Assembly: GCA_963700695.1 (NCBI GenBank)
Contig: CAVOYO010000004.1
Span: forward strand, 71,959 to 135,958
Source: an uncultured Acidobacteriota bacterium
Lineage (GTDB): Bacteria > Acidobacteriota > Vicinamibacteria > Fen-336
Length of the DNA: 64,000 nt
Direction: 5' to 3'
The notes under the pieces were generated by a model. The model saw nothing but the letters and a program-made list of their open reading frames with translations. It had not been told where the DNA came from and did no database searches. Positions 35,534 through 46,410 of the stretch are shown in pieces; the stretch's first letter is position 1, and each line of letters opens with the position of its first letter. Made by a program: the position numbers and the translations under genes.

Positions 35534-38500
35534 CTACCGGATCGTCATCCCCGGATCGGCGAGGAGGTGATAGATGGCGAGCAGCTCGGGCATGACGCCC
35601 TCTTCGGCGTAGACGGCCTGGGCGGCCAGCACCGCGTCCCCGAGCCTCTCGTGCACCCCTGAGGTGATCTCGGCCATGAGCGCCCGGTGGAACCGGTGCG
35701 CCGGAGCGTCGAGACTCAGCCCCGAGGGCGAGAACGCCCCGATCGTCCCCCGCCCCTCCACCTTCAGGAACGCCTCCGACAGCGAGTCGTAGTTCGGGGC
35801 CACGAAGTAGCCGTTGAGGCAGTTGAAGGTCAGCATCAGGGGCTGGCGCGACTGGGCCAGAAGACCCGCGGTGTCCCACGAGTTCAGCACGTTCTCAGAG
35901 GCCCACACCGCCGCGCCCCCGTGGCCCACGTAGCTCATGAGCGAGGCCCCCTCGTCGAACGACGCCAGGATCTCGGGACGGGTGTTTCCTCCCAGCTCCC
36001 TCAGGAAGAGCGTCTTCGTGGGCCGCCCTCCGAGGAAGCTCGCCTTGATGTCCAGGACGTCCGCCTCGAAGTCCCCGGCCAGATCCGGGTTGTCCGCCAC
36101 GAGGACCGCGGTGCCGGAGAGGTCCTGGGCCGAGTCCTCCCAGGCCAGGACCTTCTGAACCAGAGCCTGGGCCTCGGTGAGCGTCTTCGCGGGGAGCCTC
36201 CCGATCGCCACGTCCGGCAGGAGGTCCTCGCCGTTGACGGCCGCCGAGCGCGGGGTCGGACGCGGTCCACAGATACGAGGTCTTCGCCCACATCGCGGGC
36301 AGAGGCGCCCCCTGGTCGAAGCCGGTGAGGTTCCGGGGGTCATAAGACGAGTCCCCCAGGAGCAGCACGTAGCGCACTGAGGGCCCGGTCCAGGAGTGAT
36401 AGGCGTAGGCGAGGACATCCCGGATGGCCTGGGCCGAGGGGCGGCCGTGTCCAAACTCGGACGCGATCTCCTCGAACGAGACCGCCTTCGCCGTGAGCCC
36501 CTGGTCCCGCCGCCGCTCCAGAAGCGGCTGAGCCGCCTCCAGGAACGCCTCGGGGGCGATCACCACGTAGTCCGCCTGGTTCCGGGTGCTCCGGAGCGTC
36601 GAGCGCAGGGGTGTGGAGACCCGAGGCAAGAGCAGCCCCTCGGGTGAGGCGAGCACGTAACGATGCCCGGCCTCGGCCTGGAAGCGCACCGTGCCCGCCT
36701 TGTGTCTCAGGCCCTCGAGCCACACCGGGGCGTCCGGATCCGTCACGTCCAGACCCACCTGGGCCTCCCCGGAGACGATCGCCCGCCCCGTCTCGGAGAA
36801 GACTCCACTGAACAGCCCCGAGCGCAGTGCCGGGGTCTGGGGATAGACCAGATCCACCCGGTCGAGGAACACGAACGAGTACGCCCCGGTGTCCCCCAGG
36901 TTCGTCACGGTCAAGGAGCTCTCGCCCTCGAGAAGGACGGACGCCGGAACGCTCGTGGAGAAGACGTGGGGGAGCTTCCCGTCGAAGGAGGTCTCGCCCA
37001 GAGGCGTGCCGTTCAAGGACACGCTCAGGTGGTGCTCGCCCTCGGTCTCGGCCTCGGAGGCGCCCTGGAAGACGACCTGGAGGTGGGCCTGCAGAGGTGA
37101 CGTGGGATCGAGCCCTTCGATCGAGAGGGGGAAGGACTTGCTCATCCCTCCGACCACGAAGTCCCAGAGCCAGATGTCGGGGGCGTCGAGGAGGCCGGCC
37201 TGGTAGTAGCGGTTGGTCTCGAAGCGCTCCTGGGCGAGGGGAGCGGATCCGAGGATCGGGAGCTTCCGGAGCGAGGCGGAGACGAGCGGCATCTGGACCC
37301 CGCCCGTGGCCTGCTCGAGGGCGTAGGCGACCTCGGAGGAGTAGTCGGTGGAGGCGGCCTCTCGGGAGGCGTGGAAGTAGAGGACGCTTCCGGGCCCGAA
37401 GTCCTTCGTCTTCGGCTCGACGTGGACGGGGACGGGATCACCCTGTCGGCTGAGGCGGAGAGACTCGAGGGGCAGGGCCTCGTGTCCCTGGGGGAAGAGG
37501 GTCTCGAAGGAGACGGCGTGGAGCCCCCGGGTCTGGGTGTGCAGATGTGCGAGGACAGGGGACGACCCGCGACGGAGCGACCATGGGCGACGACGTCCCC
37601 GGGAGCCGTAGCCCGTCTCCGAGGAGGCGGCCTTTCTGTCGAAGGCGATCTTGACGCGGAGGCGCCGGGCGAGGCGGAGCTCGTCCGAGGCGGCGTCGTA
37701 TCGCAGCGGGCTCATCTCGAGGGCGAGCTTCTTGTTTTCGCCGATGAAGGCGTCTCCGGAGATGCGGGCGGCGAATCGGGGCACGAGGCCCGTCGGCCTT
37801 CAAGCCGGCCGAGCGGCGCCGGGGCCGGACGGTGCCGTCGGGTGAGGAGACGATCTCGGCCGAGCCCACCGCGGCGGGTCGGAGACCGGGGAAGGAGCGG
37901 GTGCGGGTCTCCTGGACCGAGACGACGCGCGCGTGACGCCCGACGACGGCGTCGAGGACGACGCGCTTCAACGGCAGGTCGGGGGCACGAGGATCAGTGC
38001 GACTGGTCGAACCCCGGGACGGAGATCTGGAGACCGGAGGGGGTCTCGGTGGCGACGAAGCCGGGCGTCGAAAGCTCCACGACCACGGCGTGCTTCGTGC
38101 GGGAGACGACGCGGAAGGACGCGTCCTCGGGACGCCCGTAGATCCGAGTCTCCTCGGGAGACTCGTCGGAAGCGAGATCCTCGTCCTCGGAGGCATCCGA
38201 TCCGTCAGGATCGGATGCGCCGGAGCCCCCATCCTCCGCCGGGGGCGCGGCCCCTGCCTGAGGCACGGCAGAGATGGGACCGTGGAAGGTGGAGCCGGAG
38301 TGGGCGTCGATGTCCTCGAGACGGTAGAAGTAGCGCACCCCGTTCAGGAGGCCGGTGTCGCGGAAGGAGTACGACGCCCCCTCCGGCGAGGAGCCCAGGC
38401 CGGGGATGAGCGACGACGTGATCCGCGTCCAGGGGCCGGCCTCCAGAAGCGACCGGTACAGGTGGAAGCCCAGGTTGTCCAGCTCGGAACCCGTCCGCCA
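35534..38500 (-). repeat. direct repeat copy 1 (about 3 kb) of the C-terminal cassette
   Basis: Aligns with 43473-46410 at a constant offset of 7939 nt, then 7938 nt. Paired shadow ORFs in the track are identical or nearly so (for example 36611..36811 vs 44549..44749 and 36340..36723 vs 44278..44661). Confidence 0.9.
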
Positions 38501-39706
38501 CGTGAGATCCACCGCGGAGTCGGCGCCCATCGCGTCGAACGACAGGAGGTCAACGGCAGTCGTCGCCAGGACATCATCGGCTCCGACATCCCAGGGGGTC
38601 TGCCGCACTCCCATGTCGATGTCGATGGCGAACGCAAGATCGGCGTCAGCGGACAGGTCGACGCCCTGATCCTGGGCCCACGTGTCGTCGGGTCGCAGGT
38701 GATAGTCGCGCCTCCGACGAAGACCGGGTCGGCCCCCGCGCCGTCTCTCGTCTTCGGATTGAGCCCAGGAGCGATCGCCCAGATCGGAGAAGTTGTTGGT
38801 GCTGCCCGCGCTGTAGCGTACCCCGGTAGGGATTCGCGGAGTCAATCGAGATGTTGTTCTTGGCGTGCACGATGGTGTTGTTGAACTGCGCGATGCCGCG
38901 GTGGGTGGCAGGGCCCGGTGCCGACGACGGTGTTGTTGTAGGCGTACAGCGTGCCGTACTCGGCGGCGTAGATCCCCGTGCTCGAGCTGGCCCCGACGTA
39001 GCCATAGACCACGTTGTTCCACACCTTGGCCGACGTACAGGCTGCTGTCCAAGGTCGTGGTGCCGAACGAGCTCAAGAGCACCGATGCCGAAGGCCACGT
39101 CCGGCAGACCGGCCGTCGTTGAGCGGACGATGCTGTTGGAGACGTGGATCTCCACGGGAAGGTCGCCGTTGCTGTCGCCCCCGTGAATCCCGTTCGACTC
39201 CGTCGATACGATCTGGTTCGTGTTCAGCTGCAGCCCGTCGATGCGGACGTAGCGCTCCCTGACCCCGATCACGGCGAAGTAGCTCGCGTCCTGTGACAGG
39301 CGGTAGGCCGAGGTGTCCCAGGCTCCGTTGTGCCGCTGGCTCGTCCCCACCTCCGTCTGGAACACCGGCGTGTAGATCCGGATGTAGTTGTCCGGGCCCG
39401 TCTCCCAGCTGTCGATGTAGACGGATCCGATGTCCTCCCCGTCCGCGTAGCACGGCACCATCATCACCGTGTTTGCCGTGACCAGGTCCATCGAGGGATT
39501 GACGTCGTCCTCCGTCGGCTCGAGGATGTTGGGGTTCTCGATCCCGGACTCCCAGTCGGCCAGAGCGTTGTAGGCGCGATAGACGCCGACCGGGGTCAGG
39601 GGCGGGGCCGCCGTGGGCTGAGCCCCATCCTTGTCCGCCACGCTGAACGTCGTGGGGGAGCTCCTCCCGACGATGAAGGCGAGCCGGTTCCCTCCCGAGG
39701 CGTACG

Positions 39707-45722: not shown

Positions 45723-46410
45723 GAGGCCCTCGGCCCTCAGGGCGGCCGAGCGGCGTCCGGGGCCGGACGGTGCCGTCGGGGGAGGAGACGATCTCGGCCG
45801 AGCCCACCGCGGCGGGGGTGAGCCCGGGGAAGGAGCGGGTGCGGGTCTCCTGGACCCAGACGATCCGCGCGTGGCGTCCGACGACGGCGTCGAGGACGAC
45901 GCGCTTCAACGGCAGGTCGGGGGCGCGAGGATCAGTGCGCTGGTCGAAGCCGGGGACGGAGACGCGGACTCCGGCGGGGGTCTCGGTGGCAACGAAGCCG
46001 GGCGTCGAAAGCTCCACGACCACGGCGTCGCTTCGTGCGGGAGACGACACGGAAAGACGCGTCCTCGGGGCGTCCATATGTCCGGGTCTCCTCAGGAGAG
46101 CCCGCGGACTCAGAATCCTCGGAGCCCGAGGCGTTCTCTTCCTCGTCCGCCGGTGGGACCACCTCCGGCACCGCAGACACGGGACCATGGAAGGTGGAGC
46201 CGGAGCGCGCGTCGATGTCCTCGAGGCGGTAGAAGTAGCGCACCCCGTTCGCAAGACCCGTGTCCCGGAAGGAGTAGGACGCTCCCTCCGGCGAGGACCC
46301 GAGACCGGGGATGAGCGACGGCGTGATGCGCGTCCAGGGGCCGGCCTCCGAGAGGGCCCTATGCAGGTGGAAGCCCAGGTTGTTCAGCTCCGAAGCGGTC
46401 CTCCATTCGA
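43473..46410 (-). repeat. direct repeat copy 2 (about 3 kb) of the C-terminal cassette
   Basis: See copy 1. By-eye mismatch density is roughly 1 in 10 at the 3' end. There are almost no mismatches across the central ~1.1 kb. Similarity fades upstream of about 46400. Confidence 0.9.

Follow-up and report, generated by a model that had tools for sequence, protein, structure and literature searches.

Conversion-driven concerted evolution is a feature of several bacterial surface-protein families, among them opa and pil in Neisseria, msp2 in Anaplasma, and PE/PPE in mycobacteria, and gene conversion among tandem surface-protein paralogs is well known. We describe what appears to be a clean new example in an uncharacterised family, represented by two tandem genes, A and B, in a stretch of 64,000 nucleotides from an uncultured Acidobacteriota bacterium (assembly GCA_963700695.1, contig CAVOYO010000004.1, positions 71,959 to 135,958 of the forward strand). 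This whole stretch, with a G+C content of 69.7%, is referred to as the window. Both genes end in a module of about 1000 residues, here called the cassette, which terminates in a C25 cysteine protease domain; the closest described enzymes are PorU and the gingipains RgpB and Kgp. Gene B (43473..50061) lies upstream of gene A (35534..43198) in the direction of transcription, and both are encoded on the minus strand. Judged by sequence, they are adjacent same-strand paralogs of a large family of Vicinamibacteria-type Acidobacteriota that has relatives in Gemmatimonadota. A third member, gene C (7213..12774, minus strand), joins a DUF11-type head to a C25/PorU-like module at its C-terminus; its 1853 codons are unbroken, and it was used as the outgroup.

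The repeat occupies the 3' (C-terminal) part of both genes. In a BLASTN comparison, positions 35533-38183 matched 43472-46121 with 95.8% identity across 2655 nt, and a second match, in the region of an immunoglobulin (Ig)-like domain, paired 38262-38500 with 46167-46405 at 86.7% identity. The homology ends 3 nt beyond the TAG stop codons of both genes; at the other edge, similarity fades by about 38560 in A and 46465 in B, and none was found past about 38560. The offset between the copies is 7939 up to 36243 and 7938 from 36245 on, the same two values that a first-pass annotation of this DNA had given, and the change at 36244 is a frameshift.

The computed identity profile is strongly uneven, a mosaic as that annotation had supposed. 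Starting from the stop codons, A 35534-35753 is 84-91% identical to B and includes a dense divergent patch (A 35655-35753, B 43594-43692) with 17 mismatches in 99 nt, recognised in the alignment and in the three-sequence comparison described below. The adjoining block (A 35754-35986, B 43693-43925) has a single mismatch, at 35887. Identity is then 90-96% in 35987-36249, which holds 8 mismatches inside 36158-36178. The core (A 36250-37307, B 44188-45245) has 5 mismatches in 1058 nt, at 36345, 36450, 36513, 36834, and 37149 of A, and is therefore near-identical and not identical. Identity is 95-98% in 37308-37660, about 90% in 37665-38160, and 84-88% in the Ig-like region (38260-38500); in the acidic linker between the last two (38160-38260), the insertions and deletions sum to a multiple of three. 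The percentages estimated by eye needed small corrections; a few percent around 35760-36030, for instance, was too high over most of that span. In total, 186 differences separate the two copies. The longest exact run is 320 nt (36514-36833), against a maximum of 221 in 10,000 shuffles of the differences. The flanks of the core diverge by 5-17%, and the near-identity tract was significant by permutation (p < 1e-4).

The aligned cassette codons contain 82 synonymous and 62 non-synonymous differences. Just 5 synonymous differences and 1 non-synonymous difference fall into codons 400-760, whereas outside this interval there are 5-11 synonymous differences per 40 codons. Silent sites are homogenised in the core, and therefore selection at the protein level cannot be the cause of its identity. 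Nor can constraint explain a core identity of about 99.5%, because the cassette of paralog C is only 50-65% identical to A and B at the DNA level along the whole module.

To compare the two copies with a third sequence we used the DNA of a copy from a sister genome (L011), and the informative sites were subjected to a runs test. These sites cluster in blocks (p about 0.001). At 35656-35743, 14 consecutive informative sites have A equal to L011 and B as the odd one out, so the patch at 35655-35753 is read as a short tract imported into B (43594-43692). At 36158-36209 (minus strand), 9 consecutive informative sites have B equal to L011 with A as the odd one out; this patch is therefore read as a short tract imported into A. 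In the central region, A and B agree and L011 differs. Sister-genome copies in the protein collection are 96-98% identical, and a four-taxon comparison of proteins also gave discordant groupings: over the final 60 residues A clusters with P0008 and B with P0003, while in the core A and B are the same and share derived states with P0003, and the pattern is reversed at residues 782-834. The core is nearly identical among A, B, P0003, P0124, P0126, and P0123 despite their different heads and different Ig-like and pro regions. The heads of P0124 and P0128, from sister genomes, are absent from the window, and the core of their cassettes is nearly identical as well. Three cassette proteins are encoded on one sister contig, and tandem pairs or arrays of cassette genes recur in L002, L005, and L010.

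The locus thus combines a bounded tract of near-identity beyond chance, homogenised synonymous sites, and phylogenetic discordance. The silent sites, the block pattern, and the four-taxon protein pattern bear out the earlier suggestion of gene conversion, and the mosaic identity is best supported as the product of repeated conversion among family members and not of selection. The exchanges are many, short and long, among more than two paralogs, as opposed to one duplication followed by one conversion; the picture is of at least four heads' worth of paralogs taking part. The process would be non-reciprocal homologous recombination, repeated among members of the family. One long recent tract would have homogenised 36250-37307 (99.5% identity), a second tract would correspond to 35754-35986, and short tracts from more distant paralogs would have given B its dense patch at 35655-35753 and A its own at 36158-36209. 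A constant segment serving as recombination substrate, mosaic identity, homogenised silent sites, and short imported tracts are also found in bacterial surface-protein families that undergo conversion. In contrast to opa/pil, msp2, and PE/PPE, nothing here points to programmed switching, a dedicated expression site, or silent cassettes, and the variable part is a whole multi-domain head and not a hypervariable loop.

The order of domains within the cassette is a beta-sandwich, an acidic linker, a gingipain-type prodomain, further beta-sandwich domains, and the C25 domain, which ends at the stop codon. Cassette A (35534..38555, minus strand; delimited by BLASTN, alignment, and Pfam) comprises the Ig-like domain (about 38260-38555), the acidic linker (about 38160-38260), and the C25 catalytic domain (35543-36569), which is split by the frameshift at 36244; its catalytic His codon is at 35921-35923 and its Cys codon at 35819-35821. 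Cassette B (43473..46465, minus strand; delimited by BLASTN, Pfam, NCBIfam, and a homolog model) has the corresponding Ig-like beta-sandwich at about 46167-46465, the linker at about 46100-46166, the C25 domain at 43482-44507, His at 43860-43862, and Cys at 43758-43760. The C25 domain (PF01364, clan CD) was matched with an expect value (E) of 9e-67; cassette B scored 226 bits against a cut-off of 23 and covered profile positions 1-373 of 374, and cassette A matched in two pieces (profile positions 1-94 and 113-373) divided by the frameshift. The C25 propeptide gave a partial match (E 1e-5). The motifs around the catalytic residues, YVGHGG and FNCLNG in both copies, align with YTGHGS and VACVNG of RgpB. 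In an alignment of 78 sequences the His and Cys are invariant, as are the W..T..E..N.GF, PGLGSS, GHG, and C-L-N-G motifs, and the consensus begins abruptly at TTAVxLxSF, the first strand of the beta-sandwich. The Ig-like domain had no match in Pfam, but in an AlphaFold model of the 79%-identical homolog P0002 (predicted local distance difference test score 84.8, predicted template modelling score 0.79) it is a confident six-strand beta-sandwich, followed by a disordered acidic linker, a long beta-rich region, and a C-terminal alpha/beta domain. The composition proposed in the first-pass annotation (Ig-like domain, acidic linker, C25 propeptide, and C25 protease) therefore stands. The PGLGSS motif (SLIPGLGSSPEG) lies within the Ig-like domain, at about 38380-38420 in A and 46290-46330 in B, in what is a long loop between strands in the model; the motif is a candidate for the place that the C25 domain recognises or cuts.

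In a Foldseek search with the P0002 model, the top match was PorU (6za2), with E 1.7e-27 over 800 aligned columns; the template modelling (TM) score was 0.39, low because of domain placement across 1077 residues. The catalytic domains and prodomains of RgpB and Kgp followed, with TM scores of about 0.58-0.67, the prodomain and catalytic domain of RgpB reaching 0.65. At the sequence level, phmmer matched 6za2 with E 3e-9, and the NCBIfam model T9SS_sortase (NF033707) matched cassette residues 457-994 with E 2e-52. PorU is the best match to the whole module in both sequence and fold, and the model shares its overall multi-domain fold, with a His/Cys C25 domain embedded among beta-sandwich domains. 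However, the score of 178 bits is far below the PorU equivalog cut-off of 420, with profile positions 167-732 of 1095 matched. The module also lacks the type IX C-terminal sorting domain: the C25 match reaches to within 3 residues of the stop codon, and the module ends at its catalytic domain. PorU is a stand-alone enzyme, whereas this module is fused behind large cargo-like heads. The hosts are apparently Acidobacteriota, whereas PMC5445135 describes the type IX system in Bacteroidota. No type IX secretion genes were found among the scanned genes of the 64-kb window. With the gingipains (PF01364 and PF08126; structures 4ief, 4rbm, and 5mun) the module has in common the C25 domain, aligned active-site motifs (GHG and C-(L/V)-N-G), and a fold like that of the RgpB and Kgp prodomains (TM 0.65-0.67). 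The architectures differ: about 350 residues of beta-sandwich separate prodomain and catalytic domain here, no immunoglobulin-superfamily or C-terminal domain follows the catalytic domain, and the variable part is N-terminal, whereas that of the gingipains consists of the C-terminal haemagglutinin domains. In fold, then, the module resembles PorU, but it is not a PorU.

The heads of A and B are unrelated, as had been claimed: BLASTN found no match between them, and TBLASTX gave only noise. Head A (38556..43198, minus strand; from Pfam, TBLASTN, and guided alignment) has three modules. DUF7948 (about 42245-42886; Pfam E 5e-59) and SBBP beta-propeller repeats (to about 40850; E 1e-49) are followed by a second module at 40867-39842, recognised through homolog P0032, and a third, beta-helix-like module beginning YRSVG at 39834-38560, recognised through P0038, P0022, and P0080. 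The SBBP part of the earlier description is thereby upheld; the LamG domain named with it had no Pfam match, and points back solely to a homolog with PF13385 in a precomputed Pfam list. The division of gene A into two genes, an SBBP protein stopping at 39707 and a separate cassette gene, was considered and rejected, as the coding sequence runs on through frames f2, f1, and f0, reading MVDYQSATTA, then LLYRSVG...ITGSTA, then FSGPMPD, exactly as in P0038. Gene B opens with a clear signal peptide (LLGLLVLGMALLAQPAHA, followed by ATFTV). Its head (46466..50061, minus strand; from translation and TBLASTN of homologs P0079, P0086, and P0019) consists of the two beta-helix modules previously proposed, at about 50010-48290 and about 48230-46470, each opening with an SLR(D/E)AI motif; the Pfam match to Beta_helix is weak (E 0.0013), and the homologs give better support. 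A scan of 35000-51000 for promoters and terminators returned nothing above shuffled expectation.

A search with a corrected 995-residue cassette B as query (bases removed as described below) retrieved 310 proteins at E<=1e-10. Among the best 120 of these 310, about 100 cover 100% of the cassette, and their heads carry beta-helix (PF13229), LamG (PF13385), DUF7948 with SBBP (PF25778 and PF06739), NosD (PF05048), SdrD-B (PF17210), and PF24299 domains. The modularity of the heads is thus family-wide, with different Pfam heads on a full cassette, and the sister genomes add at least two more heads (P0124 and P0128). This supports the other half of the earlier suggestion, that of modular heads on a conserved module. 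The few named sources are 'C25 family cysteine peptidase [Vicinamibacteria]', Acidobacteriota, or Gemmatimonadetes. In a scan of a genome collection, the relatives had identities of 55-87%, except for one from Nitrospirota (L009) at 25%. Our literature search returned nothing on C-terminal C25/PorU-like modules in Acidobacteria or on the cassette family. Some Vicinamibacteria genes join a short head directly to the last 150-430 cassette residues (L004 9600-11292, and also L006, L007, and L008); in L004, where the head comprises a signal peptide and about 130 further residues, a 1-nt deletion (ATGCTG to ATCTG) immediately precedes the catalytic Cys motif.

The reading frames of both genes are interrupted, which had gone unnoticed in the first-pass annotation. 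Breaks were located with a frame plot of G+C at third codon positions (GC3), a six-frame hidden Markov model (HMM), reading in three frames, and frameshift-aware alignment to homologs. The 11 breaks of gene A divide it into at least 12 frame segments, and the 4 of gene B divide that gene into 5; high-scoring pairs with homologs run along gene B in frames -2, -3, -1, -2, and -3. The density in A and B together is about 1 per kb (15 in about 14.5 kb), and 14 of the 15 consist of one additional base (binomial p 0.001). Each segment has a GC3 of about 0.9. The housekeeping genes of the window are intact (carAB, argS, acrB, and bshC are unbroken), and of 16 breaks counted outside gene C, 15 fall in A and B (p 1e-7).

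Five breaks lie in the cassettes, each specific to one copy, with the other copy or a sister protein reading through uninterrupted. In A, an extra base at 36244 (frame f0 to f2), in the C25 domain at the 3' edge of the core, is absent from B and L011; one at 37792 (f1 to f0) interrupts a reading that is intact as ...SAGLKADGLVPRF... in sister protein P0124; and at 38002 (f2 to f1) B reads through as ...VPGFDQRTDPRAPDLP.... In B, the extra base at 45756 (f1 to f0) falls where A reads through as ...DGTVRPRRRSA..., and at 46029 (f2 to f1) the sequence CGAC may combine CGC (Arg; the codon presumed from the R of P0001 and P0124) with CAC (His, as in copy A). All five sites lie outside homopolymers of 3 or more bases. 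Removing these five single bases, as was done for the 995-residue query, opens both cassettes end to end with no stop left. Programmed +1 frameshifting or recoding was also considered; the five sites have no common motif, and the idea was dropped given 11 sites in one gene.

Eight of the remaining breaks form a cluster within 1.1 kb of head A (38708..39838; alignment to P0038, TBLASTN, and HMM), beside 3.3 kb without any. Seven are one extra base each (about 39835-39838, 39753, 39077, 39031, 38916, 38816, and 38773), and at 38708 there are either two extra bases or one missing. Head B has an extra base at 47015 (f0 to f2; translation, HMM, and alignment) and another at 47985..47994, between ...DFDVDYP and AGFTRSW... 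(f1 to f0; translation and HMM). Cross-mapping of paralogs within the window was rejected as the cause of the head breaks, as the broken head segments have no second copy there. Residues ~580-615 of P0079 match an alternative, not the coding, frame of gene B (window 46514-46627), which suggests a compensated frameshift pair in the assembly from which P0079 derives.

Similar breaks occur elsewhere. An unrelated Acidobacteriota long-read metagenome-assembled genome (L010, contig_7726, 1.4 Mb, with a Flye-style contig name) carries a tandem cassette pair at 3266-6498 and 9122-12335, 84% identical. In its first cassette gene, one base is inserted at 16 places and two bases at 2, with the neighbouring residues conserved, and its second has at most 3 insertions, two of them in the acidic linker and doubtful. 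The close homologs P0001 and P0002, on short Joint Genome Institute contigs, are intact. Sister contig L011, also with a Flye-style name, has a G4-to-G3 homopolymer deletion. Forms of 585-749 residues (P0121, P0122, P0003, P0008, P0126, P0127, and P0123), which begin MPLVSASL..., MSPLRYD..., or VPPF..., result from gene calling downstream of frame breaks and are not natural short proteins, as L011 shows directly; P0123 ends in an out-of-frame tail. That the 585-residue form is a naturally truncated gene was rejected, as the L011 cassette continues upstream of the ATG in another frame after the G4-to-G3 deletion.

Purifying selection alone, with the core identical as the most constrained part of the module, has in its favour that the core spans the beta-sandwich array and the first half of the catalytic domain, both well conserved in the family alignment; but synonymous differences are missing as well, so that the codon classes already contradict it, and paralog C and relatives at 83% identity differ freely in the core. 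We consider this explanation very unlikely. Still less credible is a duplication created by assembly, with one real cassette and a mis-joined second copy: nothing beyond the general weakness of the locus speaks for it, while the 186 differences, the differing heads (head B with its clear signal peptide, head A with a less clear N-terminus), the three cassette proteins on one sister contig, and the tandem pairs in three other genomes all speak against it. Homogenisation by the assembler or polisher has a stronger case. The cassettes would then be real but different throughout, and the core identity would come from pooled reads of the copies or of paralogs. The locus has clear consensus problems, with its 15 frame breaks, and the sister assemblies, apparently of the same long-read type (contig_N names), show the same near-identity among paralogs; P0126, for example, differs from the tail of P0124 by 1 residue. 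Set against this, five isolated mismatches remain within the core, long reads anchored in unique flanks would normally separate the copies, tract boundaries vary between genomes, and pooling would not produce short patches in which one copy is more divergent than the sister genome. On balance we regard homogenisation as rather improbable. Several points nevertheless weigh against gene conversion as we read it: the two-copy structure, the near-identity of the core, and the insertions are all known from the assembly alone; a polisher working with multi-mapping reads could homogenise paralogs and mimic conversion, a bias that would recur in sister assemblies; and the orthology of A with P0008 and of B with P0003 depends on few residues.

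The 15 breaks are probably, for the most part, long-read consensus artefacts at a strain-variable multi-copy locus and not real lesions, a reading adopted because the independent genome L010 shows the same pattern. Several breaks look as if both alleles of a polymorphic site had been written into the consensus, which would give the extra base. We found no paper that documents such an artefact; the Nanopore R10.4 paper treats homopolymer indels only. The mechanism has its difficulties, as site 38002 does not fit it, and for the head breaks, which have no paralog in the window, cross-mapping would need strains or paralogs elsewhere in the genome. The real -1 deletion before the catalytic Cys of L004 moreover means that genuine inactivation occurs in the cassette family. 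A serious rival, though an unlikely one in our estimate, is therefore that A, B, and part of C are decaying members of a birth-and-death family and that the breaks are genuine. Besides the L004 deletion, this would agree with the concentration of breaks in A, B, and C, all large surface-protein genes of the C25 family (among other genes just an alpha/beta hydrolase is broken), and with truncated members in several assemblies (P0003, P0008, P0123, and P0126). Bacterial mutation is generally deletion-biased, however, and 14 of 15 events here are single-base insertions, with no nonsense codons and no larger deletions. GC3 remains about 0.9, the A-B differences imply a ratio of non-synonymous to synonymous rates near 0.3 by a rough estimate, the 8 events in 1.1 kb of head A adjoin 3.3 kb with none, residues flanking the breaks match distant homologs, and the same insertion-only pattern appears in the unrelated L010. 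Taken jointly, a modular family, a mosaic made by conversion, a cis-acting module, and artefactual frame breaks form the best overall explanation, and we hold this combination to be probable.

In this combined explanation, each protein consists of a signal peptide, a lineage-specific head (beta-propeller, beta-helix, or others), and the constant module of about 1000 residues. The module would act in cis on its own polypeptide, clipping the head off at or near the linker or passing it to a surface acceptor, as PorU does in trans. The junction between head and module falls at a domain boundary, the first beta-sandwich strand, and because heads are joined there the module may supply the homology along which unequal or non-reciprocal recombination reshuffles heads and tails in tandem arrays. 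The processing role is a prediction from sequence and model, and our literature search turned up no work on the family; both points count against the combined explanation. In a more far-reaching version, which we put forward only tentatively and think unlikely in full, the cassette would be a built-in, cis-acting PorU-like sortase or autoprocessing unit that provides a display or release route independent of type IX secretion in Acidobacteriota and Gemmatimonadota, each head with its own enzyme; concerted evolution would keep the copies compatible with a shared acceptor or partner, and the PGLGSS loop or the acidic linker would be the site of cleavage or transfer.

The family has more than 300 uncharacterised members, from phyla that are not known for type IX secretion, in which a complete PorU-like C25 module stands behind cargo-like heads that vary greatly. 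More interesting than the conversion itself is the purpose of a complete PorU-like enzyme at the tail of hundreds of cargo-like proteins outside Bacteroidota, and the family is a concrete target for asking whether a cargo protein can have a sortase-type reaction built in. The frame breaks also carry a warning. Strain-variable multi-copy genes in long-read metagenome assemblies can gather insertion-type breaks, which gene callers turn into strings of false short proteins (for example, of 585, 629, 726, and 749 residues), and this will bias surveys of domain architecture and counts of pseudogenes in such families.

Gene C seems to extend upstream into an open reading frame of 1067 codons (13331-16531, minus strand) with an IgGFc-binding-like region and DUF11 repeats. 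The path between them (12760-16531) crosses what looks like an in-frame stop (12775-12777) and changes frame several times at about 12760-14250; if continuous, gene C and the upstream frame would seem to form a single gene, about 3100 codons long, that has a break cluster of its own. Apart from this cluster, the only break outside A and B is in the alpha/beta-hydrolase gene (29026-30088, plus strand), where a -1 frame change occurs near 29355-29380; the reading ...VLVHGFASS...ALDLPG resumes in another frame as GGSERRADLSF...GNSMGG.... The signalling and envelope genes that follow one another at 19279-23550 (plus strand) encode a Ser/Thr protein kinase, a PEGA and TonB_C protein, an FHA, double-zinc-ribbon, and RDD protein, and signal peptidase I, and have no connection with the repeat described here.

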